From: a virus
Taxonomy: Duplodnaviria > Caudoviricetes
IMG/VR virus record: IMGVR_UViG_3300044472_000032
Span: 1 to 63,511 of that record
Length of the DNA stretch: 63,511 nucleotides
Strand: one strand, 5' to 3'
The position numbers and the translations under genes were made by a program. Numbering within the stretch: the first letter of the stretch is position 1; each line of letters starts with the position of its first letter. A model generated the notes under the pieces. The model ran no database searches. It saw nothing but the letters and a program-made list of their open reading frames with translations, and was not told the DNA's origin. Shown in pieces: positions 3,709 through 63,447 of this stretch.

Positions 3709-4425
3709 ATGGACGCACGACAACGCCTCGCCAAGCTCCTGCATGATCAGCCCATCGGCCGCCCTGCTGCCTACAGCCCACCGTCGATCCTCGCTCCTGC
3801 CGCCGCTGGTACTCCGCCACCAGCTACCACACCAGCGGCCAGGACGTCCGCCGTCATCCCCTACACCATTCCCGATGCCGGGCGAGATCTCAAGCTCGAC
3901 CCGGCGATCATTGAGGCCTTCGCCGCCGTGGAGTCGGTTCAGGGGGCATTTGATTCTACCGGCCGACCGGTGATCCTTTTCGAGCGCCACATTTTCGACC
4001 AGAAAACCAATGGGGCATACAGGGCCGAGGCGCCCGATCTCAGCAACCCCAACCGCGGAGGCTATGGCAAGTATGCCGCCCAGCATGATCGCCTCGCTCG
4101 CGCCCGCGCACTAGGCCGCGGGGCGGCAGACGCGGCGGCAGTAATGGCCACCAGCTGGGGGAGGTGGCAAATCATGGGTTTTAACCATCTGCCGGCTGGC
4201 TTTATGACCCTGCGTGATTTTGAGACGGCTATGCGGCGCAGCGAGGCCGACCAGCTCCGAGCGTTCGTCGCTTTCATGAGACACGAGGGGATTGACGGGT
4301 TATTGCGAGCGGGAGACTTCGAGGGTGCTGTGAGAAAATATAACGGCACTGGCCAAGCGCTCTATTACCTTGGCAAGTTTAACGATGCGCTAAAGCGGGC
4401 GAGAGAAAAAAAGCGCAAGAAGTGA
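3709..4425 (+). CDS. Endolysin, N-acetylmuramidase (DUF3380/Muramidase family)
   Basis: AVES...P.ILFERHIF, TSWGRWQIMGFNH and YNG motifs. Confidence 0.9.
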   Translation: MDARQRLAKLLHDQPIGRPAAYSPPSILAPAAAGTPPPATTPAARTSAVIPYTIPDAGRDLKLDPAIIEAFAAVESVQGAFDSTGRPVILFERHIFDQKTNGAYRAEAPDLSNPNRGGYGKYAAQHDRLARARALGRGAADAAAVMATSWGRWQIMGFNHLPAGFMTLRDFETAMRRSEADQLRAFVAFMRHEGIDGLLRAGDFEGAVRKYNGTGQALYYLGKFNDALKRAREKKRKK

Positions 4426-47144: not shown

Positions 47145-50100
47145 ATGGCAGCGCAGCAGTCTACGCATCTAATCGGCATCGGCTACAAGGTAGAGGCGGG
47201 TGGGGTTGACGAATGGGCGAAGCAATCCGCCCGCGTTCGCAACGAAGCCCGCTCTACTGCTACCGATATCGACAAAGCGGATAAAGCAATCGGCATCATT
47301 CAGGCCACGATAGCCAATATCGCCCGGGCCTCGGCGGTAGCCATGGCGCCAGTTATTGCGTTCGTGGCCGCCGTCTCGGCCATACCGGCAGCGCTGGCTA
47401 TTGTGAGCGTCGCGGCAATGGCCGCTACCTCGCCATGGCTCGAATTTGAGCGTGGCCTTGTAGGTGTAGGCAAAACTGCCGGTATTCAAGGGTCAAATCT
47501 CGAAGCCCTCGGCCGCGGTATCGAAAACCTGTCTACCGCCGGAGACATTCCGTCAAAAACGGATGAGCTACTCGAGATTGCGGAAGCCGCTGGATCCCTG
47601 GGCGTAACCGGCTCAGAAAACATTCTTCGCTTTACCGCCACCCTTGCCAAGCTCGGCGCAGCTTCCAACCTGCAAGGCCAAGCAGGCGCCGCGGCTCTCG
47701 CCGAAATCCTCACTATCACCAGCGAGGGGCCCGCCAAAGTCGAGCAGCTTGCCTCCGTCATTGTGGCGCTGGGTAATGCCTACGCTGCCACCGAAGCGCA
47801 GATCGCCGGGCACGCGGGAGATATCGCCCGCTCCACTGCTATTTATGGCGTGTCCTCTACGGAGGCCGCCGCGCTCGCTGCCGTGCTCGCCAGCATGGGC
47901 GTACAAGCTCAGCTCGCCGGCTCAGCTACGGGCCGAGCTCTACGTGTGATCGAAACCGCCATCATTACCGGCGGCGAGAACATGCGGCAGCTCTCGCGCA
48001 TAACTGGCGCATCCGCCACAGAAATTGAAAAAGCGTGGGAAAGCGGACCTATCAACGCGCTCACCCTTATGCTCGAAGGTCTCAACAAAATTAAAGCGGC
48101 TGGAGGCTCGGTTTCAGAGTCCCTGTCCTCAGTTGGCTTAGACGGGGAAGAGATCGCCAAAGTTCTCCCCGTGCTCGCGAAAAACCTGGACGTGCTCGCA
48201 GCCGCGCGCGCCACGGCGGCAAAGGAAGCTGAACATGCAACGGCGCTCGACAATGAAGCCGCGCGCGCGTCGCAAACGCTATCCGTCCAGGTGGCAGTAT
48301 TGGGAAATCGCTTCGAGCAAATGGCGCGCACCATAGGGCAGCAGCTCGCCCCTGTAGTGATGGACGCGGTAAAGCAAGCGCAGGAATGGCTATCGGCAAA
48401 TCAGGGGCTTGCAAAACAAATCGGAGGCGACCTCGCCACGGCGCTAGGGGTAGCTGTAAAAGTAGTTGCGTTCCTCGCGGAAAATATCTCACTGTTAGAT
48501 AACGCCCTAGTCGCAATTACCGCAGGTTCATTTGTCGCGTGGCTGCTAATGATCGCGCCAAGTATCGGCACGGTCACTGCAACCATTGGTACATGGGCCA
48601 GCGCACAATTAGCCGCGGCCGCTGCCACCACCACTACCGCGGGGGCCACCATTGCCCACGCTGCCGCCGTTGCAGCCAGTGTGCCCGCCGTCGCCACCCT
48701 CACCGCCTCTACAGCGGCCCTGGCTGGCGCTACCGCGGCCGAAGGGCTGGTAATGGCTACTGCGGCAGAGGGACAGGCCGCCTATGCCGCTACAGGGGCC
48801 CTGGCGGCCTCTTCCGAGCTGCTGCTAGCCGGCAGTGTCGCTGCTACCGCCGCGCCCCTGGCAGGGCAGCAGCTCTTACTACAGGCCGCCACCGTTGCCA
48901 CCGTAGAGCTCACCCTCGCGCAGCGCGCCATGGTACTCACGACAGCAGCTCTGCGCGCCGCGTGGGCTGGCATGCTGGCGACGCTCGAAGCGCACCCCAT
49001 CATCCTCATCGCTACCGCCCTCGCGCTTCTGGCAGGCGGCCTGTATGCCCTCTATGAAAAATACCAAGAAACCGAAGCCGCTGCTGCCGCTTATCATGAC
49101 GAGTTGGAGTCGGGCCGAATACTGGTAAATGGTCAGCGCGCAGCACACGAGGAATTAATCGATACTCTTTCTGATGAAATAGCAAAAAGGGCGGAGTACA
49201 GCCGCTCACTAGAAACCCAGCAACGCCGGCTAGAAGAGCTGCTGATCGCGCAGCAGCGTCTACGTGCCGCCGGAAGTGACCCCGCTGCATATGGAGCTGC
49301 ACGAAATCAAGCAAACGAATTAATAGGCGGAAGTGGAAGTGGGATGGTCTCAACACTCGAGAAGGTTAACGCGGAGGTAGATAAACTCCGCGCAGAAATC
49401 GATCAGGCGAATATCGGATGGGCTCAAAGCGGAGATGAAATCCTAGCTATCCAGGCGCGTTTAGAAGAACTTACGGGAGAACGCGCAATTAAATTAGCCG
49501 CTGATATGCAGGCACAGCGCGCGCGAATAGCTGAAATGCTGTCCGATCTTGCGCAAATCAAGCAATCACAGCTTGAAATCAGCGACGTTGCAATGTTTGC
49601 TGGCACTGACGCTGGCGTTGCCACTCTCAACGCTCTTTCTAATAAGCTAGAAATCGTTTATAGCAACTTGGACGCTGCGCGCCGCGGCTTCGCCGGCATG
49701 GGACAGGACCTTGACGCACTGCGCCCGAAGATCGAAGCGCTTATCGACGCCAGCACCCAGGGCGGTGGTAATCTCGATCAAGGCAAAAAGCTTTTAGGAA
49801 CGCTTTACACCGGGCAAGAGCTGGCCGATCAGATCGCCATGCTCGAAGCGGTTTATGAAAGCAATCAGCGCAACCGCGAGGCCATGGCGGCAGAGGAGTC
49901 CGCTCGCAAGCGTATTCAGCAAGCAACGGCAGATCAGGCTAAGCGTTATCAAGAATTGCGTGTCGAGTTAATTGCCGCTGGCACCGCGAATCAGTTTGTT
50001 ATTGCCCAGCAATTAATATCGGTAGAAGCTGGCGATGCCGCCGTACGCAGTACCGAGCGAGAAGCTCGCGCACGTTCGCAAACTAAAGGGCTCATGGCTG

Positions 50101-53100
50101 GTCAGGCCGCGGACATTAAGCACTTGATCGAGCTGCGCGATCAAGAGGAGCAGCAGATCGCAGCATCTCGCGTGGTTGCAATATCCGAGCGCCAGAAAGC
50201 GGCCAATGATGCGATCACCCTCGCGTATGGGCGCAACTTCGCTGCCGGCAGGCAGGCAGAGGCTCAAATGCAGCGAGAGGCAGATGTCCGCCGCGCGCTC
50301 GAAGGTGTCGTAAAGGAACAGCGCGCGGCAGTAGAGGCGGCCACCCGTGCCGAGCTCGATAGCGCGTCGGCTTCCGCGGCCGCTGCCGAAGTAGCGCAAC
50401 TGCAAAAGGAGGCATTCGAGCTGCAAGCCGTAAATCTCGCACGCGCCAATGGCGAGGGTGCGGCGCGGCGCCTGGCGGACGCGATCGCCGTGCAAAACAT
50501 AGCCACCGAAGCTTCCGCCGGGTTTTTCGGCCTGGAGGCCGATGCGATCGAAAGGGCGGCACTCGCGCGCGAGAGGGCTGAAACAGCTGGCCGTGGTGCG
50601 GACGAGATCGCATCGCTCAGGGAAGAAGCGCGTTACCTTGAGGACATTTCGCGCTTGCGGCGTGGCGACTTCGATACGCTGCGGGACTACGAAAAAGCGG
50701 TAGCCGATATCAACCTGCAGCGCGAAATCAGCGTAAAGCTTGTTGAGCTAGAGGCGGATAAGAATCGCGAACTGTACGCCGTAATGGCCGATGGCTTTCA
50801 ATTTGAGGATATCTTTCTCAGCGAGGAAATTGTTTCGCGTTATCGCGATCGCGCTGCCGAAATAATCAAACTGCTCACCGACATTGCGGATAAAAATAAA
50901 CAGATCGACGACGACTCTGACCAGGGCAGCACCAGGCTTGACAAGTGGGTCGAAACTGCCGGCGTACTAAAAGACGTGCTCGGCGACGTAGACGAACAAT
51001 TCAGCAAAATACTTGACAGCGTTTTGCAGCTAGTCGAGGGCATGGGCCAGGCCAGTACGGCTGCAAACAATTACGCGGGGAACGTAACCGCTGCTGTCGC
51101 TTCGGCCAACCTGGTTGGTGCCATCGGCGAGCAAGTGACCGGGCCGAAAAACTATGGAGCGGAAGGCGCGATGATTGGCGCGCTGGTGGGTGCCGTGCTG
51201 GCCGCCGTGTTTACGTGGGGTATCGGTACGGCTGGAGGTGCTGCGCTTGGTGGCGCTATCGGCGGCGCTATTGGTTCATTTATCAGCAAGGGTAGCGATG
51301 AATTCCTCGGCCAAATTCGGTTAGCCGGCGATCATGCTACCGGGCAAATGAAATTAGCTGAAGGCGCAATGGGCCAAACTGGTCGCCAGTACATGGACGC
51401 CATTTCCCGCGGTATTAACGCGGCGGTCGACGCGCTTGGGGGCGATCTGGTAAGCCTGCCGGGAATAAGTATCAAAGTGCGCGAGGGAGTTTACTCAGTT
51501 TTCTCCGGTGGAATTACTGCAAGATTTGATTCGATGAATGAGGCTATGGATTTCGCCATCCTGCAGGCGCTGAAAAATGGTGAAATAGACGGCATAGCGG
51601 ACGAGGTGCGGCTGGCGATTCAAAACTCTACGGCTGAGTCGTTCCAAAACATGAGCGCGGATCTCGACCTCGCAAAATGGATATCTCGCTTACCCGATAT
51701 TGGGCTCGAAGCCGGCAAGGGCGCGGAAGCGGTAATGGATGCCATTGAGGGCTACCACTCTGCTTTCCGCCGCGCTACCCAGCTCGGCATCGAGACTGAG
51801 AAGATTACGCAATGGTTTGCTCGGTCACTGCAAAACACCCGCAATTCTATCCTTGGCATTACCGAAACTGATCGCGAGCGCATCACTCGCGAGGCAGAAG
51901 CCTTTAACCGCGAGATCGTGATTATCAAGGCCGAGCAGGAAGTCAAACAAGCTGAGCTGCTGATCAAAAAGGCGCAGCTTGAAGCGCAGATTGCAATCCT
52001 TGGGTCTGAGATCGACTTGGCTCAGGCAGAGGCGCGGCTCGATTGGCAGATCGTCCAGGGCTACGGTGATTATGTGAGCGATCGTGCTCAGGTTGCAGGG
52101 CTTGAGATCGACATTTATAACGCGCTGCGTGAGCAGTTGGCCGCAACGATAACCGGCATTGCGGCGACCGCTGGCATTCTGGCGGGGTTGCCGGCGATTA
52201 TCACCCCGGGCGAGATCGAGGATGCTATCGGCCGGGCGGGCGGTGGCTACAGCGCGCCTGACACGTCTGCGGCAGATGCCGCGCGCGAACGCGAGCAGCT
52301 TATCCAGACGCTAAAAGATCTCGCCAGCGTCAACGTGCCAGATTTCGATAAAGCTTTACAAGACCTCGCGGACAAATTCGCAGAGGCGCAAGCGAATGCC
52401 GAGCGACTGGGCATAACGCAAGCCGAGATCGATAAAGCAAGGCTTGAGCAGGCGACCGCACTTGCTCGCAAGATCCGCGACTCTGTAAAGGATTTTTTAT
52501 CGCCTGAAAGCGGCGGCCAGTTTGGCATGAGCGACTGGCAAAAGCAGGCAGCGGACTTGCGCGATAGATTGGCCGAGGCGTTTCGCCAGTCGCAGTTACT
52601 AGCGGCCCAGGAAGGCTTCAGGGCGCTCACTCTTGAAGAGCTGGCCGCTGCTACTGCGCGGGCAAATAGGGCCCTTGCAGAGCAGGCCAGGGACTCTCTG
52701 GCGGATCCTATCCAGGCAACACGCAATGACCTCGCGAAGCTGGGCAGTACGCTGGAATTTCTGCGCGATCAGATCGCTAAAGGGATATTCACAGCGGCAG
52801 AAGGGGCGGATATCTTTGCGGGTGCTATGCGCCAGGCGGAGTCCACCGTGCTCGACCTTGCGGCGGCGCTGCTCGAACAAATGGGCTTCGAGGAAGAGGC
52901 GTCAGGAATCCGCGCCGCGCTGGCCGAGGCTGAATTCGTCGCCAAAGTGGCGCAATTGAATATCCTTGTGCAAGGGTATATCGCGCTAAACCTACTCAGC
53001 CAAGAAACTGTTGATCGGCTTAATGGATTGCTTGGAATTATCAATGATCCAACCAACTGGCCAGATTTTTACGCGCCGCCTCCGCCACCTGCCAATAATA

Positions 53101-54173
53101 ACCAGCCCGACAACGGCCAGAACGAGGCAGAGCGCCAGGCAGAAGAGGACGCGCGTCGCAGGCAAGCCATTCTCGATCAAATTGCGGAATGGGAGCGCAT
53201 TGGCGAGAGCCAAGCGATATCCACGCTACGCGACCTGAATGAAACCTTTGCTGAAATGCAGGCCGATGCGCGGCGCCTGGGTATCGACATGGACAGGCTA
53301 TCTGCTGCCTACGCGCACGCGGTAGAGGCGTTTTGGGATGACACACTCGCGCCGTGGGAAGACCATTCGCAAGAAACTATTGGCGCCGGGCTGGCTGAGA
53401 TTCAGGAACAGTTTGCAGGGTTTTATGCAGCTGCACAGCAGTACGGCGGAGACATCGAGCGCATTCGCAGGGCAAACCAGCAGGCAATAAACAATTTCTG
53501 GGAGGACGTGCTCGGCCCATTGCGTGATTGGAGAGACGAGCTCACCCAGGGATCGCTCGGCAGCTCTAGCCCAGAAGAGCGGCTATTCTCCGCGCAGCGC
53601 GCCTTTGCGGATATTGCCCAGCGGGCACTGGGTGGCGACATCTCTGCCATGCAGGGATTGCCGGATGCGATCTCGGCCTATCTTGAGCAGGCACGGGCGA
53701 TGTATGGCTCGGGAGCGGACTACCAGGCGATCTATGCCGCCGTGCAGCAGGTGATAGGCCAGGTGCTGGCCATGGGCCCCTCTGGTACCGTGCCGCCTCC
53801 AGGGCCTACCATGCCGCCTCCCTACGATCCGGTAGGCAACCTGCTGTCCTACAAGCCTCGCCCGGCGGACGCTGTGCCCGCGCAGGGTATCCCGCCGCTG
53901 CCGGCGGCAGAGCAGGCGGCCATCAGGGAGAGTGCCGAGCGGCGCGAGCTCCAGGAGGATATGCGCGCCATGGTAGCGAGGCTTGATCGCCTGATCACCC
54001 TCATGGAGCGTAATCAGGCGGCGCAGGCTGATGCGGTGGCGGACACGAGGCGGCAGGCAGAGCATAATGCCGTGGTGGTGCGCGAAGTGCGCGGGGTTGT
54101 GGATTATTTGCAGAGCGAGGCTCTCCGCAAGGGCGGGATTGGGCCGGGGAGCGGGTTTAGGAAGGCGGGCTAA
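47145..54173 (+). CDS. Tape measure protein
   Basis: 2342 aa, Ala-rich helical, TP901-type core near the N-terminus, hydrophobic segments. Confidence 0.93.
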   Translation: MAAQQSTHLIGIGYKVEAGGVDEWAKQSARVRNEARSTATDIDKADKAIGIIQATIANIARASAVAMAPVIAFVAAVSAIPAALAIVSVAAMAATSPWLEFERGLVGVGKTAGIQGSNLEALGRGIENLSTAGDIPSKTDELLEIAEAAGSLGVTGSENILRFTATLAKLGAASNLQGQAGAAALAEILTITSEGPAKVEQLASVIVALGNAYAATEAQIAGHAGDIARSTAIYGVSSTEAAALAAVLASMGVQAQLAGSATGRALRVIETAIITGGENMRQLSRITGASATEIEKAWESGPINALTLMLEGLNKIKAAGGSVSESLSSVGLDGEEIAKVLPVLAKNLDVLAAARATAAKEAEHATALDNEAARASQTLSVQVAVLGNRFEQMARTIGQQLAPVVMDAVKQAQEWLSANQGLAKQIGGDLATALGVAVKVVAFLAENISLLDNALVAITAGSFVAWLLMIAPSIGTVTATIGTWASAQLAAAAATTTTAGATIAHAAAVAASVPAVATLTASTAALAGATAAEGLVMATAAEGQAAYAATGALAASSELLLAGSVAATAAPLAGQQLLLQAATVATVELTLAQRAMVLTTAALRAAWAGMLATLEAHPIILIATALALLAGGLYALYEKYQETEAAAAAYHDELESGRILVNGQRAAHEELIDTLSDEIAKRAEYSRSLETQQRRLEELLIAQQRLRAAGSDPAAYGAARNQANELIGGSGSGMVSTLEKVNAEVDKLRAEIDQANIGWAQSGDEILAIQARLEELTGERAIKLAADMQAQRARIAEMLSDLAQIKQSQLEISDVAMFAGTDAGVATLNALSNKLEIVYSNLDAARRGFAGMGQDLDALRPKIEALIDASTQGGGNLDQGKKLLGTLYTGQELADQIAMLEAVYESNQRNREAMAAEESARKRIQQATADQAKRYQELRVELIAAGTANQFVIAQQLISVEAGDAAVRSTEREARARSQTKGLMAGQAADIKHLIELRDQEEQQIAASRVVAISERQKAANDAITLAYGRNFAAGRQAEAQMQREADVRRALEGVVKEQRAAVEAATRAELDSASASAAAAEVAQLQKEAFELQAVNLARANGEGAARRLADAIAVQNIATEASAGFFGLEADAIERAALARERAETAGRGADEIASLREEARYLEDISRLRRGDFDTLRDYEKAVADINLQREISVKLVELEADKNRELYAVMADGFQFEDIFLSEEIVSRYRDRAAEIIKLLTDIADKNKQIDDDSDQGSTRLDKWVETAGVLKDVLGDVDEQFSKILDSVLQLVEGMGQASTAANNYAGNVTAAVASANLVGAIGEQVTGPKNYGAEGAMIGALVGAVLAAVFTWGIGTAGGAALGGAIGGAIGSFISKGSDEFLGQIRLAGDHATGQMKLAEGAMGQTGRQYMDAISRGINAAVDALGGDLVSLPGISIKVREGVYSVFSGGITARFDSMNEAMDFAILQALKNGEIDGIADEVRLAIQNSTAESFQNMSADLDLAKWISRLPDIGLEAGKGAEAVMDAIEGYHSAFRRATQLGIETEKITQWFARSLQNTRNSILGITETDRERITREAEAFNREIVIIKAEQEVKQAELLIKKAQLEAQIAILGSEIDLAQAEARLDWQIVQGYGDYVSDRAQVAGLEIDIYNALREQLAATITGIAATAGILAGLPAIITPGEIEDAIGRAGGGYSAPDTSAADAAREREQLIQTLKDLASVNVPDFDKALQDLADKFAEAQANAERLGITQAEIDKARLEQATALARKIRDSVKDFLSPESGGQFGMSDWQKQAADLRDRLAEAFRQSQLLAAQEGFRALTLEELAAATARANRALAEQARDSLADPIQATRNDLAKLGSTLEFLRDQIAKGIFTAAEGADIFAGAMRQAESTVLDLAAALLEQMGFEEEASGIRAALAEAEFVAKVAQLNILVQGYIALNLLSQETVDRLNGLLGIINDPTNWPDFYAPPPPPANNNQPDNGQNEAERQAEEDARRRQAILDQIAEWERIGESQAISTLRDLNETFAEMQADARRLGIDMDRLSAAYAHAVEAFWDDTLAPWEDHSQETIGAGLAEIQEQFAGFYAAAQQYGGDIERIRRANQQAINNFWEDVLGPLRDWRDELTQGSLGSSSPEERLFSAQRAFADIAQRALGGDISAMQGLPDAISAYLEQARAMYGSGADYQAIYAAVQQVIGQVLAMGPSGTVPPPGPTMPPPYDPVGNLLSYKPRPADAVPAQGIPPLPAAEQAAIRESAERRELQEDMRAMVARLDRLITLMERNQAAQADAVADTRRQAEHNAVVVREVRGVVDYLQSEALRKGGIGPGSGFRKAG

Positions 54174-54180
54174 AGGTGCC

Positions 54181-54648
54181 TTATTTAAGTTCTGATTCTC
54201 CACCCAGGAATTTCTCACAATTGATTTCCTTCACTGCGGCCTCTATTTCATCTGACGTTGCGCCGAAAAGCGCTGCGCCAAGGTAGCGCAGCTTGTCCGC
54301 TGCCGACGTTTCGAGCGCGATGATCGCGTCGAAGACCTGGCGCACCGTCTCGTACTCGGGCGCAAGGAGAACGATCGACGATCGGCCGAACTTCGTCACG
54401 GCGTCGTCATACTCGCGCGCCAAGACACTTCTGGCCGAGCACCGAAAAAGCGCCGGTATCGGAGGCCCTGGCCAGCCAGCCAGGCAGGCGTGGAGTCCCT
54501 GGCCAATTCGCAAGGACGGGGTTGATTCCTCGGGCGGTTCGGTGCGAGCAACGTAGCGCCGCCAGGCTTTGGCTGGATCGTTGATGCCAACTCGCACCAT
54601 CGAGCTGGACCAATGACCATCCCGCTTGTGGTAAGTGTCAAAGCTCAT
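54181..54648 (-). CDS. Protein resembling the N-terminal part of RecE/DUF3799 exonucleases, possibly truncated
   Basis: YH...SSS...P...TPSLRIG..LH present; no D...DxK core follows. Confidence 0.45.
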   Translation of the reverse strand: MSFDTYHKRDGHWSSSMVRVGINDPAKAWRRYVARTEPPEESTPSLRIGQGLHACLAGWPGPPIPALFRCSARSVLAREYDDAVTKFGRSSIVLLAPEYETVRQVFDAIIALETSAADKLRYLGAALFGATSDEIEAAVKEINCEKFLGGESELK

Positions 54649-54651
54649 TGA

Positions 54652-55083
54652 TTACTCAGCACTTTCGTAGCGAACTTGCCGCATTCTTGACTGCCGATAA
54701 TACCCGCCAGTTCCCCATCCATCGGTATCGTATACCTCGCGCAAAATTGGCAATTGCTGCCAACCTTTACCATTGCTATTCAAGAACTCGCGCCCCCTAG
54801 GTTCGATGCGAACAGATTGCCTAGTAACCGCACTGCCTCGTTTGTATTTTTTCGACCGCACTGTTGGTCCAAATGAAACCATCCCAGCTTTTTTAAGGCG
54901 ATCAAGCTCGGCCGAATCAAACGTAATTGAACCCTCACTTGCTTGTGCTCCGTGAATGAAAGCACCCGGGAATTTGTAGGAAAACGCTCGTCGTTCTACT
55001 GCGCCTGTTTCAATCTGCCGAAGCAGTTCAAGCGCTCTCAGAATGTCCAAAGGCAATGCCCGGCCTTCGGCAAAACGTCCCAT
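54652..55083 (-). CDS. Hypothetical protein (winged-helix-like)
   Basis: LDRLKKAGMV...IEPRGREFL. Confidence 0.55.
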   Translation of the reverse strand: MGRFAEGRALPLDILRALELLRQIETGAVERRAFSYKFPGAFIHGAQASEGSITFDSAELDRLKKAGMVSFGPTVRSKKYKRGSAVTRQSVRIEPRGREFLNSNGKGWQQLPILREVYDTDGWGTGGYYRQSRMRQVRYESAE

Positions 55084-55084
55084 T

Positions 55085-55282
55085 TTATGCCTTCTTCTTC
55101 AACTCATGCTCGAGCCGAAGGTCCTTCGCAAGCTTTTTGGCTTCCACTCCTGAGGCGGCTTCGACTTCAAATTCCACGCATCCTGGCCACGAGTTGCTGT
55201 ACCAGCAGGTGTAAGCCGAGACGCGACTTTTTAGCAACGGTTCGATCGGGTCGTAAAACGTTCCGACTGTGAATTTTTTCAT
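55085..55282 (-). CDS. Hypothetical protein
   Basis: SD AGGAG. Confidence 0.6.
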   Translation of the reverse strand: MKKFTVGTFYDPIEPLLKSRVSAYTCWYSNSWPGCVEFEVEAASGVEAKKLAKDLRLEHELKKKA

Positions 55283-55593
55283 TGGACTCCTTTTGAGGCT
55301 GCCATCCAAGCCTTTGCCTCATCGGTCAGTTGATAGACGCGCTCGCGTCTTGGAGCCAGCTCCAGCCAGCCAGCGCGGCAAAGGTAGGTCATTGTTGCTG
55401 TTCCAAACCAAATGTCTTCAGCGCGCGAGAAGCTCTTGAAGATGAGGGTCAGCGCCCGTTCTCCAGAAACCCAGATGCCGCTTTCGGCGCGCCGAAAGTC
55501 CCGCGGTTCTGACGAACACCGAAGATGATCAATCGCGTACCTTTGCTTTGGTTTGAGGTCTTCGTAAGGGGTGCTCGCGCCAGTGATCGTCAT
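55279..55593 (-). CDS. Hypothetical protein (winged-helix-like)
   Basis: YLCRAGWLE...YQLTDEAK. Confidence 0.6.
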   Translation of the reverse strand: MTITGASTPYEDLKPKQRYAIDHLRCSSEPRDFRRAESGIWVSGERALTLIFKSFSRAEDIWFGTATMTYLCRAGWLELAPRRERVYQLTDEAKAWMAASKGVQ

Positions 55594-55967
55594 TCCGCCG
55601 AGTCGCGTCTCTTGGATCTTGCCATCCAGGCCCTTGCTTCATTGGTCAGCCGCTCGTTATTCCGCCGGAACGAGTCTTTTGGATCTTGAAGCCAACCTGC
55701 AATCCGCTTCACCCCGAGCTCTCTTGGCTGCGGTGGCGGCTCGGGCCGCGGTGGCGGATCGGGCCGCGGCATCCATCCAGCAACTCGATAAGCTTCGCCT
55801 TCTTCCGTGCGATAACTCTTTCCCCATCGTGGGCCAATGTCTCTAGTTCCAAAAGCCTCATAGACACGATAATCCCTATAAGGGTTATCCCAGTCTCCTT
55901 CAAAAACAGCAATGAGGAATGTTCCACTTTCTGGGGCGGTTTCAGCAGGAAGCCAATTGCTAGTCAT
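55590..55967 (-). CDS. DUF551-like hypothetical protein
   Basis: WLPAETAP..G N-terminus and WMP.P.PP; SD GAGG before ATG55967. Confidence 0.55.
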   Translation of the reverse strand: MTSNWLPAETAPESGTFLIAVFEGDWDNPYRDYRVYEAFGTRDIGPRWGKSYRTEEGEAYRVAGWMPRPDPPPRPEPPPQPRELGVKRIAGWLQDPKDSFRRNNERLTNEARAWMARSKRRDSAE

Positions 55968-56234
55968 TTTTTCCGTCCTCGGGCGTGCTTCCCTTGCCAC
56001 GCCGTGATTATAACCCGCTACGGCGCACGGAAGTGATGCCACGCATTCTAAGCCATGACTTTTCTCGCGGGTCGTTTGGCTCAATGGGAAACTCGACGAC
56101 GGCGCAGTCATCCCAGCAAAATCGGTGGCCGTCGTGATAGACGTTTTCGATAGCCACGTGGCCATCGCTCCATCAACCTATTTGCTTTGAAGGGCGTACT
56201 CTCTGCCAAGAAGGTTTTTTTGAGCAACCTTGGC

Positions 56235-56495
56235 ATGCCCCTTTTAGATTTGCAAGACGGCGATTTGATCGTGGCCGGAGGCGTCAACCAACTAGCGCAT
56301 ATGCTGGTGGCCGAAGCCACCAGCGAGCAACGAACGCAACAACCTAGTCAGCCGGAGAAGAATCCGGCCGCTGTGGCGCTGGGAAGGCTAGGGGGCTTGA
56401 AGGGCGGGAAGGCTCGAGCGGATAAGCTCGGTACTGAGCGGCGAAAGGAAATTGCCCAGCAAGCCGCTAAGGCCCGCTGGGGAAACAAAGGCTAG
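56235..56495 (+). CDS. Small basic protein of the KNPAAVALGRLGGLKGGKARA family
   Basis: VNQLA..LV..AT and KNPAAVALGRLGGLKGGKARA.KL..ERRKEIA..AAKARW. Confidence 0.7.
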   Translation: MPLLDLQDGDLIVAGGVNQLAHMLVAEATSEQRTQQPSQPEKNPAAVALGRLGGLKGGKARADKLGTERRKEIAQQAAKARWGNKG

Positions 56496-56719
56496 AGCAC
56501 GCCTGGGGGTAGTTCGAAACGCCGAATGATGGCGGAGATGACGCCCTTACGGAGTTCGGTTCCTTCCCCGTGGCATTTTACGGTAATTCTCCGCGGCGAG
56601 CCTGAAACATCAGGATGCGCTATGGAGCGCTCGCTGCCCTTTGCCGTGCTGAAAGTAAAGAGCTTGTCGTGGCGCTTGAGTGCCGAAACGACATCTCTGT
56701 AGCTCTTTGGACTAGGCAC
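56492..56719 (-). CDS. hicA: HicA-like toxin (variant GSE motif)
   Basis: YRDVVSALK...KGSE...ITV..H...EL.KGVI.AI; overlaps the hicB stop. Confidence 0.65.
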   Translation of the reverse strand: MPSPKSYRDVVSALKRHDKLFTFSTAKGSERSIAHPDVSGSPRRITVKCHGEGTELRKGVISAIIRRFELPPGVL

Positions 56720-57101
56720 CGGCGTGCGCGAAGCCTGGAGTGCTAAAGGCGCTGCCATTCAAGAAGGGCAGCAAAATATCTCGCAGGTTGAATTCGCGCG
56801 ATGGCGCAGGGGCGGGAGCGCCACTCGCGGCCTCCTTCAAGAAGGACTTGAAGGCTTGATTCCACTTATCGAAGTACTCGGCTTCGGCGGGGAAGAAGAT
56901 GGATTCCGGCTCGCTGGCTTCAAAGGCCGTCTGGATTTGAACCTTCATCACGTCCTGAAGCTCTGCAAGCGCCGCTTCGAAACTGTCGCCATAACCACGC
57001 AGATCCATCTCAAGGGCGAGGGCCACCCATTCGCCTTCCTCTCGGTAGCCCAAAACCCGAACGTGAAGCTCGTGGCTAGTTGAGTCGGTTCTGCTCATCA
57101 T
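56712..57101 (-). CDS. hicB: HicB-like antitoxin
   Basis: EEGEWVALALEMDLRGYGDSFEAALAELQD partial RNase H fold; SD AGGAG. Confidence 0.7.
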   Translation of the reverse strand: MMSRTDSTSHELHVRVLGYREEGEWVALALEMDLRGYGDSFEAALAELQDVMKVQIQTAFEASEPESIFFPAEAEYFDKWNQAFKSFLKEAASGAPAPAPSREFNLRDILLPFLNGSAFSTPGFAHAGA

Positions 57102-57202
57102 TTTGTCTTCTGCTCCTGGGGCCCTGCCCCTGGATTGGCACTCGGCTAAAACTTGTGCAAACTGCGTGCCAAATGTTTGCAAATAAGCCCCCGTCGGTGT
57201 GT

Positions 57203-57231
57203 ATACTAGCGCCTTGACCATGCACAGTCAA
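57203..57231 (-). promoter_or_regulatory. hicBA promoter
   Basis: TTGACT-17 nt-TAGTAT. Confidence 0.55.
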
Positions 57232-57438
57232 TTGTTTTATTCGCACAAGTGTGCAAGTGTGCCACATATGCAAACTGACTTTTTGCTTGACTTATGACGC
57301 CCTATGCGATCACCGAAAAGGGAGTTATCGAATTGTCTTGGAGACAAATAGAAGGAGCGGACTAATTCCAGATCCTTACGATGTTGATGATAAATCGAAA
57401 TATGACAACACGGCCGCGATCAAGTAACATTTCGAGCC

Positions 57439-58401
57439 GTGACGCCATCAATCCCCATCTCCGGCTACCCTATCTCGAGCGACGGACTTTATGCCGAGCT
57501 CAGCACTGCCAACCCAGCAATAGCGCTACGCGCTCATGCTGGCGAGATCTGCCATTTATTTATGGCGCTCCCGTGGGATCCTGTCGCTCAGGTAGAGGTA
57601 CCGGTTTTTGCCTCCACCCATGGTTACCAGTGGGGCTCTGCCTGGCCAGGCGTGTGCGACGCCTGGCAAACGTGGCCGGCGGTTATCGAGTCCGCTGGCA
57701 GCTGGTCTTCGTCGCTCTACCAGGGCGGCCAGTGGCGCAGCAGCAGCGTTACCTATGGTCAGATCACCGTGCTCAATCTGGACGGCGCCGTAGACGCCTG
57801 GAAACGGCTCAACTGGCGCGGCAGGTGGTTTCGCACGTGGGCTGCACCCTGGAGCCTGGACGCTGGCTATGGAGGCGCAGCGCCGCATCGGTTTACGATC
57901 ATTCGAACTGGTTACGTTGATGATATCCAGCGGGACGATCAGCGTATTTATGTGAGCCTCCGCGACGCTCGCCGGGCACTCGAGCTGCCAATTAACCCGC
58001 ATACATATATTGGATTAAATACTGCGTTGCAGTTTGGTACGAATGCCAAAATAGCTGTAACTGATTGGGCGGCAATTAACAGTAACAATTTGACATTTGA
58101 GATGTTTTTTCAGAACGAGACAGCGCACAACGGGACGCTCATGTCCTACGGATGGAAGGATGGCGGGTGGCGCCTGGTGGCGACGTCTGACGGCGCGCTG
58201 CTTTTTGAGTACCCGACAGATAGCCTTTACCTTGCGAGCGACAGCGGGCTGATAGAAAGTAATTTGCCGTACCGTGTGTCAATTTCGTTTAATAAAGAGG
58301 TCAAGATATACTTGAATGGTGAGGTTGTCGCCGCGTACGCCGGGTCGATCAGCGTGCCGGATATCATTATCGGCAGCACGCCATTTCAAATAGGAGTTTG
58401 A
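57439..58401 (+). CDS. Tail hub-like protein, N-terminal part ending in the first portion of a LamG domain
   Basis: YGQITVLNLDGAVDAW; LTFEMF...VKIYLNG...PFQIG then stop. Confidence 0.7.
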   Translation: MTPSIPISGYPISSDGLYAELSTANPAIALRAHAGEICHLFMALPWDPVAQVEVPVFASTHGYQWGSAWPGVCDAWQTWPAVIESAGSWSSSLYQGGQWRSSSVTYGQITVLNLDGAVDAWKRLNWRGRWFRTWAAPWSLDAGYGGAAPHRFTIIRTGYVDDIQRDDQRIYVSLRDARRALELPINPHTYIGLNTALQFGTNAKIAVTDWAAINSNNLTFEMFFQNETAHNGTLMSYGWKDGGWRLVATSDGALLFEYPTDSLYLASDSGLIESNLPYRVSISFNKEVKIYLNGEVVAAYAGSISVPDIIIGSTPFQIGV

Positions 58402-58405
58402 CTCT

Positions 58406-58822
58406 ATGGCTTCCACTTTTTACACTTCAGCAAAAGCGCTCCTATGGGGAGCTGGTATCAATTGGGGCAGTGCGGATATTCGCGCCGTCTTGGTCGAGAC
58501 GTCGGGCGGATCTGCCTACACCGTAAACGCTGCTACACATGATTTTCTCAATGACGTGGCCGCCGGCTCCAGGCTGGCGACGTCGGCATCAATGACGGGT
58601 CGGTCGATTTCCGGCGCATACTTGATCGCGGATAATGTGACGTTCGCTACGGTGGCCGCTGGCGCGCTGGTGGGTAGAGCGCTTATCCTTTACATTCATA
58701 CGGGTGTCGAAAGCACATCGAGCCTGATTTGTTATATCGACACGGCGACGGGGTTGCCGGTTACGCCAAACGGCGAAGATATTACTGTGCGATGGACTTC
58801 TAACCGCGTCATCTCGCTGTAA
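58406..58822 (+). CDS. Minor tail/virion protein, paralog A
   Basis: DIRAVLV, ADNVTF, LICYID, TPNGEDITVRW. Confidence 0.7.
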   Translation: MASTFYTSAKALLWGAGINWGSADIRAVLVETSGGSAYTVNAATHDFLNDVAAGSRLATSASMTGRSISGAYLIADNVTFATVAAGALVGRALILYIHTGVESTSSLICYIDTATGLPVTPNGEDITVRWTSNRVISL

Positions 58823-58828
58823 AGGTGA

Positions 58829-59026
58829 TTGATGAAAGTTTGGATTGGGCCGCGTGATGATGATTTCGGCGACGATGGCAACCTGCTGCATAGGCCTCCG
58901 CCGGAGCGCTGGCCATATGGCCCGCCCGAGGATCACGAGGGTTTTTGCAACCTTCACAACGGCGGTTCGTTCTGCGATTGTTTGGCAAGCTCGGAAACTC
59001 AAACTAGGCGGTTAAATCATGGCTAG
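58829..59026 (+). CDS. Small Cys/His protein
   Basis: HEGFCNLH...CDC; lies between the two paralogs. Confidence 0.5.
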   Translation: MMKVWIGPRDDDFGDDGNLLHRPPPERWPYGPPEDHEGFCNLHNGGSFCDCLASSETQTRRLNHG

Positions 59027-59408
59027 CGTTTTATTTGACAAGGCCCGCGAAGCGTACCTGACCGCGGCGCTAAATTTCAGTTCAAACGATGTCCGCGCGA
59101 TATTGGTAGATACTGGTGCATATACCTTTAGCGCTGCTCACCAGTACCTAACATCAGTCGCCGGAGGCGCCAGGATCGCGGTATCCGCTGCGCTTTCCAG
59201 CAAGACAGTAACCTCAGGCGTGGCGGACGCGGCGGATGTAACCTTTACTGCCGTATCAGGCGCGTCAATCGAAGCGATTATCCTTTATCGCCACACTGGA
59301 ACGGACAGCACTTCCGAGCTGATCGCCTATTGGGATGGTTTATCGATCACGCCTAATGGTGGCGATATCACCGTCAAGTGGAATGCTTCGGGAATGTTCA
59401 AGTTATAA
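59019..59408 (+). CDS. Minor tail/virion protein, paralog B
   Basis: DVRAILV, AADVTF, LIAYWD, TPNGGDITVKW. Confidence 0.7.
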   Translation: MASVLFDKAREAYLTAALNFSSNDVRAILVDTGAYTFSAAHQYLTSVAGGARIAVSAALSSKTVTSGVADAADVTFTAVSGASIEAIILYRHTGTDSTSELIAYWDGLSITPNGGDITVKWNASGMFKL

Positions 59409-59411
59409 ACC

Positions 59412-61670
59412 ATGGCTCAATACGCGCGGCCTTCGAGTGACCACACCATGGGCACATGGTCGAGCCTATCGGGTGGCGAAACTCTTTATACACAAATCGA
59501 CGAAACGTCGCCATCTGACGGCACCGACGCGATAACGAGCGCCAGCGGTACCGGCTCCGATGTTTGCAGAGTTAATACCAACTCGATCACTGATCCGGTT
59601 GTTTCCGATGGCCATATCCTGCGCATGCGCGCGAGGCGATCCTCTGGCACCGGAGGATCTGTTAATTGCAGGCTATATAGTGCTGGCGGCCTGATTGGTA
59701 TTTACACTACTATCGCGACGATATCCTCAAGTTTTCGGACATTCGAATTTACCTTGTCTGGAGCTGAAGCGGATTCAATAACTAGTTACTCGGATATTGA
59801 TATCGAGTTTGTCAAAGTGCCGGCCGGTTTTAGCTGCACCATGGAAGTCAGCTGGGCCGAATTCGAAGTTCCGAACATAAGCCTTTCCCCATCGTTTATC
59901 GCCAGCGCGGAAACGCTCTACGCGCCAAGCGCAACAATGTTTCTCTCGCCTGGATTTATTGCCAGCGCAGAGACGCTATATGCGCCTGGTGTTGAAATGT
60001 TTTTGCTGCCCGGGTTTATCGCCAGTGCAGAAGCTCTCTACGCGCCGCTGGCGGTTTACAAGCAATACGTCGACCCGCCGGCCCTGGCCGTAGATTGCGG
60101 AACCATCGCCTCTCCGTCGGTAGCTACTACTCAATTTATTGACGCAGTGGCGCTGGCAACGGATATCGGCTCGTTTATTGCCCCAGCGATATTTGCGATC
60201 CTGGTGATTAGGCCTTCTGCCCTGGCCTACGCCATGCCGAGCATTATCGCGCCCAGCTCGGTAGATTTTGTTACGGTCGTTTATCCCGATGCCCTGGCGT
60301 GGATTGCAACGATTAAAAAACCAATTGTTTCTCAGCGCCTGTGCCGATTTTACGGAATAGTTGACGATGTCAGGATATTCGACGAAGCGCTTACCAACGC
60401 CCAGGTTGCCAAAGACGCGATGCGCGCTTATGAAGATGGCGAACTTCCCGAGCATTTAATCCTTTACTGGCGACTAAATACCGGTAGCGGTACAACGGCG
60501 ACAGACGAGACGGCCGGCGGTCACAATGGAACGATTTCGGGCACGGGTAACATATGGGTAGGATTCGAGGGCCAGGCCGACATGCGCGGGCAGAGAAAGC
60601 CCGTTGCCCTTGGCGTAACCCGCTCCACTGAGCCGGTAGAGTTTGATCCAAATAGGCTTGTTTATCAGGTTGCAGATGGCGCGATTGTTTCGACAGATCC
60701 GCGAGAGGGCGGGTTTACCGGGCTCACATTTGCCGGAAATGTTGCAAACGTATACTCAACCACCGTAATGGCTGGCCAGTACAAAATAGATCCGTCACGC
60801 GGGATGGTGCGCTTTGGTGCTACTCCAGCAGATAAACTTGCTTTCGATATTTTCGCGAGTGCAACATATACCATTCGCGATGTGATCAGGGCCGCCGCGG
60901 CGATCGTGGATAAGCTCGATTTAATCGACGACGCATCGCTGCTCGAGGTCGAGGCCGCCCGCCCTGGCGCGATGGGGCTACACCTCGGCACAGGGGCGGC
61001 GGAAACCACCCTGGCGGACGTGCTCGACAGGGTTATGGACACGGTCGACGGGTGGTGGCAAACGAGCGCAACTGGTACCGTCGTTTTCGGCCTGAGGTCG
61101 GCCCTGCTGGCCGCCACGGTGGCGACAGAAGATCTTGGCGACGTGTCCCTGGTGACCACCTCGCCCGCAGGCGTCAGGTGGCCTGCTGCGCCTCCCATCG
61201 TCTACCCCTGGACAGTGCGCTACAGGCCGTACGAGGTGACCATGGAGGCGACCGAGATCGCCGGTGCGGTACCTGCCGGGGAGCGAGCCCAGTGGCTTGA
61301 CACGTGGCGCAGCGAGGTCTCTACGCCGCTCCCGCGGTACATGCGCGAGGCTCACGCAGACAAGCTCCCGAAATCGATAGATGCCCTGTGGGACGCTCGC
61401 GGGGTTGCGTGGCGCGATGCCTACCGCCGCGGGCTACTCGATCGCCACCCGCGGCGGGCTGGTACAGTAGAGATCAAGGGAGGCGCGCTCAGGGTGGACA
61501 GGATACCCGGGGCGCATACTGTGCAAATGGCGGGCGAGGCGCTGGGCGCGCTGGTAGGGATTTCGGTTGACTTCGCGGGGGATAGCGTAACCCTTACCGT
61601 GCTGGTTACGGAGAGTGAAAATGCTGAGCTCGCGCTAGCTGATGCAGTAGAGGCGAACGAAACACTTTAG
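59412..61670 (+). CDS. Chimeric tail protein: cassette-derived N-terminus fused to LamG C-part and tail hub C-part
   Basis: FYGIVDDVRIF..ALT, YWRLN.GSGTTA.D, GFEG.ADMRG.RKP.ALG, VYQVADG. Confidence 0.75.
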   Translation: MAQYARPSSDHTMGTWSSLSGGETLYTQIDETSPSDGTDAITSASGTGSDVCRVNTNSITDPVVSDGHILRMRARRSSGTGGSVNCRLYSAGGLIGIYTTIATISSSFRTFEFTLSGAEADSITSYSDIDIEFVKVPAGFSCTMEVSWAEFEVPNISLSPSFIASAETLYAPSATMFLSPGFIASAETLYAPGVEMFLLPGFIASAEALYAPLAVYKQYVDPPALAVDCGTIASPSVATTQFIDAVALATDIGSFIAPAIFAILVIRPSALAYAMPSIIAPSSVDFVTVVYPDALAWIATIKKPIVSQRLCRFYGIVDDVRIFDEALTNAQVAKDAMRAYEDGELPEHLILYWRLNTGSGTTATDETAGGHNGTISGTGNIWVGFEGQADMRGQRKPVALGVTRSTEPVEFDPNRLVYQVADGAIVSTDPREGGFTGLTFAGNVANVYSTTVMAGQYKIDPSRGMVRFGATPADKLAFDIFASATYTIRDVIRAAAAIVDKLDLIDDASLLEVEAARPGAMGLHLGTGAAETTLADVLDRVMDTVDGWWQTSATGTVVFGLRSALLAATVATEDLGDVSLVTTSPAGVRWPAAPPIVYPWTVRYRPYEVTMEATEIAGAVPAGERAQWLDTWRSEVSTPLPRYMREAHADKLPKSIDALWDARGVAWRDAYRRGLLDRHPRRAGTVEIKGGALRVDRIPGAHTVQMAGEALGALVGISVDFAGDSVTLTVLVTESENAELALADAVEANETL
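59881..60046 (+). repeat. Three tandem 60-bp (20-aa) repeats
   Basis: L(S/L)P(S/G)FIASAE(T/A)LYAP three times. Confidence 0.9.
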
Positions 61671-61699
61671 CGCGCGGTCATTGCGTGGCAATCCAGGAT

Positions 61700-62113
61700 T
61701 CAGCCCATCTTGAAATGCGGAGAAAGCTTCAGAAGCTTCTCTGCCGCCTGCATTGCTTTCTTGCTCGGCTGGTGCACGCCCTCCAGTCCAGCCAATGCCG
61801 CTTCCCTGCCGGACTCGTAAAGCGGCACAGAGCAAGGTGCTAATACCTGCTCGGTAGTAAGTATTCCGGCAAGAACCGCCATTCTTATCGCCACGCTGCC
61901 AAATTGATGACAGCTAACCCACCCGCGGCAAATAGTAGGCGTGCCGGTTACGCGCTCCTGGTGACAATGGAATGTCGCCAATTCAAGCCCATCACTGTCG
62001 TATTCTACGAGGCGAATGTATTCCGATGGCGACCATATTCCCGGCGGAGTGTCGCGACGGTAAGGGCAGGTATTGCATGGCGTCGGCGGGCAGTTTGTCA
62101 TGGTTTTGCTCAT
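61700..62113 (-). CDS. DUF6283-like Cys-rich protein
   Basis: PCNTCPYRRD.P.GIW..SEY, FHCH, ICRGW. Confidence 0.65.
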   Translation of the reverse strand: MSKTMTNCPPTPCNTCPYRRDTPPGIWSPSEYIRLVEYDSDGLELATFHCHQERVTGTPTICRGWVSCHQFGSVAIRMAVLAGILTTEQVLAPCSVPLYESGREAALAGLEGVHQPSKKAMQAAEKLLKLSPHFKMG

Positions 62114-62293
62114 TTCATCCTCGTTACGATCCATAGATCGCGCTCGTCATTGAGGTTTACCTTTTGGCCCGGCTTTAGCGCCATGATGGCGTTGATCTCG
62201 AGCTCTGCGGAAGTGGCGTCGCCATCCGCGAGGCTACTTTCGTAGTGGTCGGCCAGCAAAAATGTGGCAAGTTGGGCGGGTCAACAACTATCT
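62110..62293 (-). pseudogene. 5'-truncated ORF fused to a truncated copy of the repeated promoter
   Basis: AGATAGTTGTTGAC runs directly into an open frame PAQLATFLLADHYESS...TRMK that has no SD or clear start. Confidence 0.5.
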
Positions 62294-62294
62294 C

Positions 62295-62329
62295 AAAAAA
62301 AGGCCCGCGCCATTTTCGGGCGCGGGCCT
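62295..62329 (-). terminator. Intrinsic terminator after the DUF932 gene
   Basis: 11-bp inverted repeat aggcccgcgcc followed by a run of T on the minus strand. Confidence 0.85.
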
Positions 62330-62346
62330 GAAGGAGAGGAAGATTT

Positions 62347-63447
62347 TCAGGCGGCCATGCTCAGAAACGAGCCGGCGACGCGCTCGATCTTGACCCGGTC
62401 ATCCTGCCAGGCGATCGACCGGGCGTAAGCCGTAGCGCCCGTGGCCGCATCCCAGAGGGTCTCAATGGGTCGGCCTTCTTCGGCTTCGTGGGCCAGGCTG
62501 ATGGCCCTCGCCTGGCCCTTGGTGAAGCGGGAGGCGAGGAATTCGGCAACCCCGTCTTGATCACCGATCTTAATGGAACGGGCGGCGGCAATCGCGTTGG
62601 TGATGCCGGAGGCGGAAGCGCTGGCGTAGTTGCGAACCGCGGGCACTACCTCTTCAATCCACCTGTCGGGCGCCGACACGGTATGCCGGATCCGGATCTC
62701 CCGGTACCCTTCCGCACCCCACACGATGCGATTCTGGCAGGCGTAATCAAAAAGGAATGTGGCAATACCCAGGGTGCAGGCTCCGACTTCGGAATTCCAG
62801 ACGAAAAAGCCCCTGGCGAGCGACCCGGGTTGACCGTCGCGCCTGTTGGGAATCTCGATGCGATTCTTTTCGTCCGCCAAGAATACCCACATGTCGCGAT
62901 CCGACCCGTAAATGGTGGTGTTGCGCTTCGTAACCTTCTCGAGCGCCACCCCAAACTCACCAGGGACCGTGAATTCCCCCGTAACACCGTCGCCGAATCG
63001 GTCGACCAATGCCTGCGCCACGTCTGCATTCCACACGCGCCCGTAATTGGGGCCAGTGACCGCGGCGAGCTCGGCAGGGCCGCCGTTCTTGCGCAGCAGC
63101 ACGCCGACATCGGCGAGCGGCTTGTTTTTGAATCCCCAGTTCATCGCGTCGGCCGCGAGCGGCGCCGGCAAGGTGCGCAGGTAGGCGGCAGGGGCCGACA
63201 CTTGGGCGCAGAGCTGACCAAACGCCCAATGCGTCGGGACAGTCGGCCCGCCATTAGGGCCAATGATCGCCATGGCATCGTTGTCCCCCTCGACTGGCGC
63301 CGCGGTCAGGGCGCGGGAGGAGACGACTTTTGGCCGCGAGATGTCGCGGGAAGCCTGGCAGTGGTCGCGAAGCGCCAGGAGGGAGGTAAATCGTTCGTCA
63401 TCCGGGCGAGACGCCCACTGGCGGGAGGCTTGGGTGAGATTGGCCAT
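62347..63447 (-). CDS. DUF932-like phage/plasmid protein
   Basis: QWASRPDDERFTSL, PTHWAFGQL, GFFVWNSEVG, CQNRIVWG; SD TGAGGAG. Confidence 0.75.
   Translation of the reverse strand: MANLTQASRQWASRPDDERFTSLLALRDHCQASRDISRPKVVSSRALTAAPVEGDNDAMAIIGPNGGPTVPTHWAFGQLCAQVSAPAAYLRTLPAPLAADAMNWGFKNKPLADVGVLLRKNGGPAELAAVTGPNYGRVWNADVAQALVDRFGDGVTGEFTVPGEFGVALEKVTKRNTTIYGSDRDMWVFLADEKNRIEIPNRRDGQPGSLARGFFVWNSEVGACTLGIATFLFDYACQNRIVWGAEGYREIRIRHTVSAPDRWIEEVVPAVRNYASASASGITNAIAAARSIKIGDQDGVAEFLASRFTKGQARAISLAHEAEEGRPIETLWDAATGATAYARSIAWQDDRVKIERVAGSFLSMAA

Follow-up and report, generated by a model that had tools for sequence, protein, structure and literature searches.

The baseplate hub of an uncultured sediment phage is encoded by two genes, and the cut between them falls inside a sugar-binding-type domain and is filled by genes for tail decorations. 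We analyzed the 63,511 nucleotides (nt) of the IMG/VR virus record IMGVR_UViG_3300044472_000032 (Duplodnaviria; Caudoviricetes), referred to below as the window. The first hub gene, open reading frame (ORF) 1, is at 57439-58401, starts with GTG, and encodes 320 amino acids (aa). The second, ORF4, is at 59412-61670 and encodes 752 aa. Both are on the plus strand, as are all features described below unless stated otherwise. We think it likely that the two genes make up a stable, inherited baseplate hub, rather than a freshly broken gene or a switch, and we infer that both chains are made and assembled.

The end of ORF1 and an internal site in ORF4 join into a single frame. ORF1 ends with ...STPFQIGV (ATA GGA GTT TGA), and ORF4 from residue 306 reads VSQRLCRFYGIVDDVRIF (ATT GTT TCT CAG). 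Removal of 58400-60330 (1931 bp) in silico gave a stop-free frame of 766 aa that reads ...PFQIGVSQRLCRFYGIVDDVRIF... across the joint. A preliminary description of this stretch had reported these ends, the resumption at residue 306, the joined frame, and a Shine-Dalgarno sequence formed by the IGV codons, and all were exact on re-reading. That description had also noted a GTTT at each junction (58396-58399 and 60327-60330, in the same codon phase), calling a 4-bp match weak and resting its case on the continuity of the domain. The caution was justified. Of 1396 possible in-frame joins lying up to about 15 codons from the two junctions, 6 shared at least 4 nt, and about 5.5 were expected (1/256). 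The GTTT match is thus at chance level and carries no weight, also as a target duplication. The continuity of the profile match was far beyond chance.

The two ORFs matched adjoining parts of one hub family. We built a profile (Hub15, 747 positions) from 15 intact single-gene homologs only. It matched ORF1 over positions 19-301 (101.5 bits), ORF4 over positions 328-745 (224.7 bits), and the in-silico join as a single domain over positions 19-745 (336.2 bits), colinear with the 15 homologs, as the preliminary description had anticipated. The join aligned without a gap over the junction with 15 of 15 intact homologs, and in this alignment the junction falls in the loop that links the '...IG' strand to the 'F.G.vDDvRiw' strand. 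The family phrog_8917 (613 positions) matched ORF1 over positions 90-247 (E 2.3e-12) and ORF4 over positions 235-610 (E 1.4e-23), so that the second match adjoins the first on the profile, and the family matched nothing else in the record. A full-library HMMER search with ORF4 retrieved single-gene proteins of about 750 aa; ORF1 matched their first ~300 residues and ORF4 from residue ~306 matched them from ~320 on. There was no match at 1e-5 in a tblastn search of 50,697 phage records with ORF1 and ORF4, and a search of PDB sequences gave nothing for ORF4 and chance-level matches only for ORF1.

The two ORFs together make one contiguous LamG domain. The Pfam family Laminin_G_3 (PF13385; gathering score 27.6 bits) was present in full (profile ~1-151, 41-82 bits) in all seven intact LamG-bearing relatives tested. 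Among relatives with only the C-terminal part of the hub (C-only), a full match was above threshold in none of the four tested. ORF1 had no Pfam match at E≤1, and ORF4 matched positions 129-151 of 151 (14.6 bits, E 0.038), below threshold. Set against the seven intact relatives, these results indicate that each ORF holds only part of LamG; the possibility raised in the preliminary description, that each carries a complete LamG of its own, did not hold. The LamG domain is itself an insertion, since hubs without it exist and join profile positions ~189 and ~394 directly: the database proteins P0121 and P0079, the IMG/VR loci L005-L007, gp48 of Azospirillum phage Cd, and gp72 of EBPR siphovirus 2. 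The nested arrangement proposed earlier, with LamG inserted into the hub and genes inserted into LamG, is confirmed by these members and by the position of the split inside the inserted LamG.

Judged from predicted folds, the family is a T5 pb3-type baseplate hub composed of hub domain I, the inserted LamG, and hub domains II-IV. In the AlphaFold model of ORF1, mean pLDDT was 64.8, and residues 30-175 were at 77-91. Residues ~23-185 resembled lambda gpL (8iyk_L, residues 1-163; Z 9.4, root-mean-square deviation (rmsd) 3.8, 140 residues aligned), T5 pb3 (residues 1-168; Z 9.4), RcGTA 6tba_7A (Z 9.7), and Sf11 9occ_F (Z 10.3), and also aligned with tail-tip chains of JBD30, R4C, Chi, and T1. These Z values are moderate, and many independent tail-tip entries agree. 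Residues ~191-320 begin the LamG domain: about 130 residues, or about two thirds of the sandwich, are present before the TGA that directly follows IGV. Residues 184-319 aligned with the concanavalin A-like sandwiches of pentraxin, CBM40, CBM66, and neurexin LNS domains (Z 8-9.6).

ORF4 (mean pLDDT 77.6) consists of four segments. Residues 1-157 (59412-59882), which begin MAQYARP, are modeled at pLDDT >90 as a CBM-like jelly roll and aligned with CBM4-2, CBM16, and CBM15 (Z 10.6-11.3, rmsd 3.0-3.6, ~130 residues aligned); the ESM Atlas returned only unnamed viral clusters for this domain. P0003 and P0004 begin MPQFARP and MAQFARP, respectively, which supports the ATG at 59412 as the start of ORF4. 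The database version of ORF4 (P0001, 740 aa) starts 12 codons late. Residues 158-305 (59883-60326) form a linker with three 60-nt (20-aa) repeats at 59894-60046 (SP.FIASAE.LYAP), and pLDDT was <50 over residues 158-310; similar AEAFG repeats are present in P0003-P0006 and in minor tail proteins of mycobacteriophages. Residues 306-390 (60327-60581) hold, besides the last LamG strand (IVDDVRIF, 316-323), a helix and additional strands that belong to the inserted domain. Residues 391-752 (60582-61670) are hub domains II-IV, in line with the phrog_8917 match over positions 235-610, and resemble the N-terminus of gpJ by fold. They aligned with RcGTA 6tba_8A (Z 16.1, 293 residues aligned), Sf11 9occ_E (Z 16.1), and residues 23-603 of lambda gpJ 8xcg_Z (Z 15.1), and also with hub chains of Chi and JBD30; residues ~383-752 aligned with T5 pb3 203-720 (Z 11.6).

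The segment after the last LamG strand, LILYWRLNTGSGTTATDETAGGHNGTISG (ORF4 residues 340-390), resembles the usual N-terminal strands of Laminin_G_3 domains, and the inserted LamG may be circularly permuted or strand-swapped. The stretch of ORF4 at residues 313-378 recurs six to nine times in the very long proteins P0007, P0009, and P0044.

A complex of the two chains was predicted in which the LamG sheet is rebuilt in trans. For ORF1 with ORF4 residues 306-752, ipSAE was 0.86, 0.87, and 0.87, compared to 0.00 for the best of three controls (116 of 157 solved complexes attain this mark, as do 2 of 215 mismatched pairs). Partner pLDDT was ≥84, and at least 90% of contacts were shared between the runs. 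The contacts with the lowest predicted error were between ORF4 316-323 (IVDDVRIF) and ORF1 219-225 (TFEMFFQ), and between ORF4 383-396 and ORF1 188-197. This outcome fits the two-chain hub suggested in the preliminary description.

The split appears to be old and inherited, or at least strongly clustered, as judged from related proteins. The architecture of ORF4 (CBM-like domain, repeats, last LamG strand, and C-terminal hub domains) was found at full length in P0003 (746 aa, 34% identity) and P0004 (767 aa, 36% identity), and also in P0005, P0012, and P0030. In all five the CBM-like domain begins at residue 1-4 of the protein, which indicates that their N-termini are complete. We classed 152 sequences (the 150 best representatives and two extra stored sequences) against the intact-hub profile: 24 had both hub halves, 16 were C-only (P0001 among them), 93 had only the CBM-like domain, 18 were classed as other, and one, ORF1 itself, was N-only. 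The hub homology begins at profile position 320-330, in the same strand, in 10 of the 16 C-only proteins, P0001 included. In P0027, P0032, and P0033 there is an insertion of ~220 residues after profile position ~50, another variable spot of the hub family.

C-only proteins grouped together in a tree of the hub C-terminal domain (353 columns, 39 rows; quick IQ-TREE search, rooted on two LamG-less rows). Support was by the Shimodaira-Hasegawa-like approximate likelihood ratio test (SH-aLRT) only. Fifteen of the 16 C-only rows fell in one clade of 17 rows (SH-aLRT 97), 13 of them formed an exclusive group (support 83), and the split label required three changes on the tree, compared to a mean of 12.7 after shuffling. 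The sixteenth, P0083, is probably an intact protein truncated by the end of its 4-kb contig, since its 90% cluster also includes a protein of 747 aa encoded on a 57-kb contig. In this tree the window appears to be a deep-branching member of the split group. The preliminary description had considered that homologs might routinely be split at this point. This is true in part, which removes the notion of a one-off, recent insertion and leaves the split itself standing.

Several findings weigh against a stable, inherited two-gene hub. The alignments behind the complex prediction hold single-chain homologs and halves of split genes tend to pass, so its scores show likeness to the intact fold, not binding. 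The tree rows were drawn from the best matches to ORF4, with the quick search and single support measure given above; two intact rows, P0028 and P0046 (the latter on a long branch), share the window's clade, in which the window itself also sits on a long branch (1.28). Five of the C-only sequences (P0006, P0010, P0013, P0034, and P0036) could be products of gene calling or frameshifts. The record is linear and 88% complete.

Searches for neighborhoods and partners of the split relatives also belong on this side. Scans of viral contigs with ORF1, ORF4 residues 306-752, P0003, P0004, P0010, and P0025 found no relative. The same contigs scanned with family alignments gave four loci, all with intact hubs (L005-L007 and L009). 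There was no relative in scans of metagenome contigs (with an alignment and with P0010) or of genome contigs (with two alignments). Word searches with ORF1 found no longer protein and, among proteins of near length, only ORF1 itself. A profile search for N fragments returned 34 proteins and no second N fragment: ORF1, the intact hubs P0138, P0153, and P0157, and 30 others, most of which have a precomputed LamG annotation and look unrelated to the hub. These partner searches were limited to word matches or swamped by LamG proteins. The split relatives would be expected to carry an ORF1-like partner gene, given the need for hub domain I.

The loop before the last LamG strand might instead be a recurrent site of landing or recombination, with several independent insertions or exchanges, and the product still two chains. 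The modules that precede the last strand differ among the C-only proteins (CBM-like with repeats in several, other beta-rich modules in P0015, and almost nothing in P0010 and P0034), which leaves room for repeated exchange at this site, and a CBM-like domain also occurs in front of the whole hub in P0064. The need for three changes on the tree rather than one and the two intact rows inside the clade point the same way. In addition, G+C content is lower across the insert and both LamG halves (0.49-0.55) than in the hub core (0.61-0.62), also at third codon positions (0.54-0.60 compared to 0.66), as if they had moved as a unit; this fits a low-G+C block with its own history. However, the exclusive group of 13 C-only rows and the clade that holds 15 of 16 favor common descent, a single origin is compatible with the starred branches of the tree, and no nuclease or recombinase family in Pfam or PHROG matched the insert. 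We consider repeated independent splitting unlikely.

Recent inactivation of the hub gene, with ORF1 and ORF4 as remnants in a defective or decaying phage, is quite improbable. The hub does lie in a disturbed region, where a 3-kb block of minus-strand genes separates it from the tape measure gene, unlike the arrangement at L009, and the record is incomplete. However, neither frame is interrupted (320 and 752 codons), and each scores well against the family profile. The third inserted module is fused to the hub exactly in frame, and its start, MAQ[YF]ARP, is conserved in P0003 and P0004. The recency implied by the preliminary description is contradicted by the presence of the same fusion at 34-36% identity in these two proteins and by the C-only clade. 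Furthermore, the genes are tightly coupled: the stop codon of ORF1 is 4 nt before the ATG of the next gene, g2, whose Shine-Dalgarno sequence (AGGAG, 58392-58396) is built from the last ORF1 codons and lies 9 nt before the ATG at 58406, and the stop codon of g3 is 3 nt before the ATG of ORF4. This spacing suggests that all of the parts are translated together. A scan for promoters and terminators gave only shuffle-level signal.

The 1931 bp are very unlikely to be a cassette that is excised or bypassed at the level of DNA, RNA, or protein to give a 766-aa hub, as in the host-range switch entertained in the preliminary description. Exact restoration of the frame and the GTTT at both ends would favor such a cassette; the GTTT, as noted above, is at chance level. 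The cassette does not stand alone: its final 915 bp code for residues 1-305 of ORF4 and continue in frame into the hub, and the relatives keep this N-terminal module fused. We found no direct or inverted flanking repeat of at least 12 nt at the junctions. An Rfam scan of 57000-62000 at E≤1 found no intron and only a chance-level match to a long noncoding RNA. ORF1, g2, g3, ORF4, and a 64-aa ORF between g2 and g3 had no match to Hint/intein, recombinase, or endonuclease families (Pfam E≤1, PHROG E≤0.1). The only sequencing run listed as holding the sequence contained 56500-62500 on one 14,397-nt contig of its Logan assembly, with 0 differences and no joint, and no contig without the cassette was found; this is weak evidence, as contigs drop rare variants and the run is probably the source sample, making it a second assembly and not independent data. 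The same run search listed no RNA run with the sequence.

It is equally hard to credit that ORF4 alone is the hub, with domain I supplied by another gene and the partial LamG a leftover: no ORF1-like partner was found for the relatives, in searches with the limits described above, but phrog_8917 matches only two places in the record and hub domain I of ORF1 is modeled at pLDDT 77-91 and predicted to contact ORF4.

Based on these results, we believe that a stable hub of two chains could have arisen as follows. The ancestor would have been a single-chain T5 pb3-type hub with LamG inserted between hub domain I and hub domains II-IV, and a block of accessory genes of the tail tip would have entered the loop that precedes the last LamG strand. 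From that point the hub would have consisted of two polypeptides: ORF1, with hub domain I and about two thirds of LamG, and ORF4, with the CBM-like domain, the flexible linker of 20-aa repeats, the other LamG strands, and hub domains II-IV. In the trimeric tail tip the two chains would be held together non-covalently: ORF4 strand 316-323 would zip onto ORF1 strand 219-225 and complete LamG in trans, alongside the contacts that hub domains normally make. The paralogs g2 and g3, which are related to a tail wing arm, and the 64-aa ORF would be translationally coupled tail-tip decorations, and the new N-terminus of the C fragment would be a mounting point for varied adhesin-like modules. A more far-reaching version, which we consider rather unlikely, is that the split LamG is a natural plug-and-socket: the free N-terminus at the tail tip would allow adhesin modules (the CBM-like domain, other beta-sandwiches, or none) to be swapped by recombination, the repeats would dock wing arms, and the low-G+C block, with its accessory genes between two LamG halves, would move between phages as a host-range cartridge onto a conserved hub core.

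A two-chain hub with genes between its halves is textbook biology for lambda. In lambda (L-K-I-J) and RcGTA (g13-g14-g15), as here, hub domain I and hub domains II-IV are on separate proteins with genes between them, and in lambda, RcGTA, Chi, JBD30, and Sf11 different chains of one structural entry matched ORF1 and ORF4. According to one report, pb3 is equivalent to gpL, gpI, and the gpJ N-terminus combined, and gpL and gpJ share one domain, the HDII-insertion, to which gpL contributes its C-terminus and gpJ its N-terminus (PMC10721106). A hub of two gene products with genes between them is therefore established biology. The present case differs from lambda in that the close sequence relatives are single-chain, the cut is in the inserted LamG and not in the HDII-insertion, the genes between are wing-arm-like and not K and I, and an additional CBM-like module stands at the N-terminus of the C fragment. 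T5 and DT57C make the same hub as a single chain, pb3 (PDB 7zhj, 7zqp, and 8hqz), and the intact relatives of ~750 aa share its layout. For pb3, the fold comparisons showed no LamG at that joint, and sequence identity was 8-10%.

There is also a resemblance to the fractured genes of phages, in which inserted DNA interrupts an essential gene whose product is then put together from two polypeptides, as for Aeh1 nrdA split by mobE (PMC3045599) and for split-intein cases (PMC2677866). The inserts in those cases are homing endonuclease genes, some with split inteins, whereas the insert here encodes virion parts and no nuclease or Hint domain was found in it.

The hub family described here has both fused and split states within one sequence family, which offers a direct view of how a gpL/gpJ pair can arise from a single pb3-type gene, or of the opposite change. 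The beta-sandwich in which the cut lies would have to be completed in trans, and the new terminus carries different adhesin-like modules in the relatives. If this is true, it would be a simple route to diversification of the tail tip and a natural docking pair made from a split domain. It also bears on annotation, as gene callers and Pfam miss both LamG halves.

The genes between the hub halves encode two related proteins similar to a tail decoration. g2 (58406-58822, 138 aa) and g3 (59019-59408, 129 aa) are paralogs (42% identity, E 2e-32), and both matched phrog_644 (E 9.2e-33 and 2e-36, respectively). g3 is a homolog of gp31, the tail wing arm of mycobacteriophage Bxb1: residues 30-127 matched residues 2-104 of 106 of PDB 9d93_Ra ('Tail wing arm, gp31') with E 2.9e-16. 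Homologs of g3 were found in 444 phage records. An ESM Atlas lead from g3 to the Pfam family Gp80 (score 0.86) was weak and was not used. According to the Bxb1 report, gp31 decorates the tail tip and is bound to the wing base gp30 rather than to the core tail; phage lacking the gp30 gene remained viable, such that wing assembly appears dispensable (PMC12646305). The Bxb1 wing consists of gp30 (base), gp31 (arm), and gp33 (brush) (PDB 9d93); g3 is like gp31, and no homolog of gp30 or gp33 was identified here.

The spacer between g2 and g3 contains the candidate 64-aa ORF (58832-59026). With AAGGTGA upstream, it has a Shine-Dalgarno sequence of its own, and its stop codon overlaps the g3 start codon (ATGGCTAG). 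The product, which includes a C..H....C.C motif, matched no PHROG or Pfam family.

Repeats of 20 aa of the AEAFG or AETLYAP type adjoin a gp31-like gene here and in Marvinvirus mycobacteriophages. In mycobacteriophage Poise (L008, 5045-11569), minor tail gene 95 is immediately followed by gene 96, the homolog of g3, and AEAFG-type repeats are found at the start of gene 95 and at the end of gene 94. As the repeats lie beside the arm gene in both phages, the pairing may be functional, and the 20-aa repeats may be docking sites for wing arms.

Downstream of the hub, the minus strand at 61700-63447 contains DUF6283 and DUF932-like genes, after which the record ends. No central fiber or further baseplate gene was seen after the hub within this 88%-complete linear record; such tail genes may be missing from it or may be at its other end (767-2582), before the endolysin at 3709-4425.

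Upstream, the tape measure protein (47145-54173, 2342 aa) matched PHROG tape-measure families (best E 1.4e-55). It is separated from ORF1 by ~3.2 kb, from its end at 54173 to the start of ORF1 at 57439, with minus-strand genes at 54181-57221. At L009 an intact 769-aa hub gene directly follows the tape measure gene, and in Azospirillum phage Cd the hub gene directly follows a long upstream gene. The minus-strand block ends with a HicA-like ORF (56492-56758; Pfam HicA_toxin, 21.7 bits, below threshold), and the 169-aa ORF that overlaps it upstream (56712-57221) could be its antitoxin.

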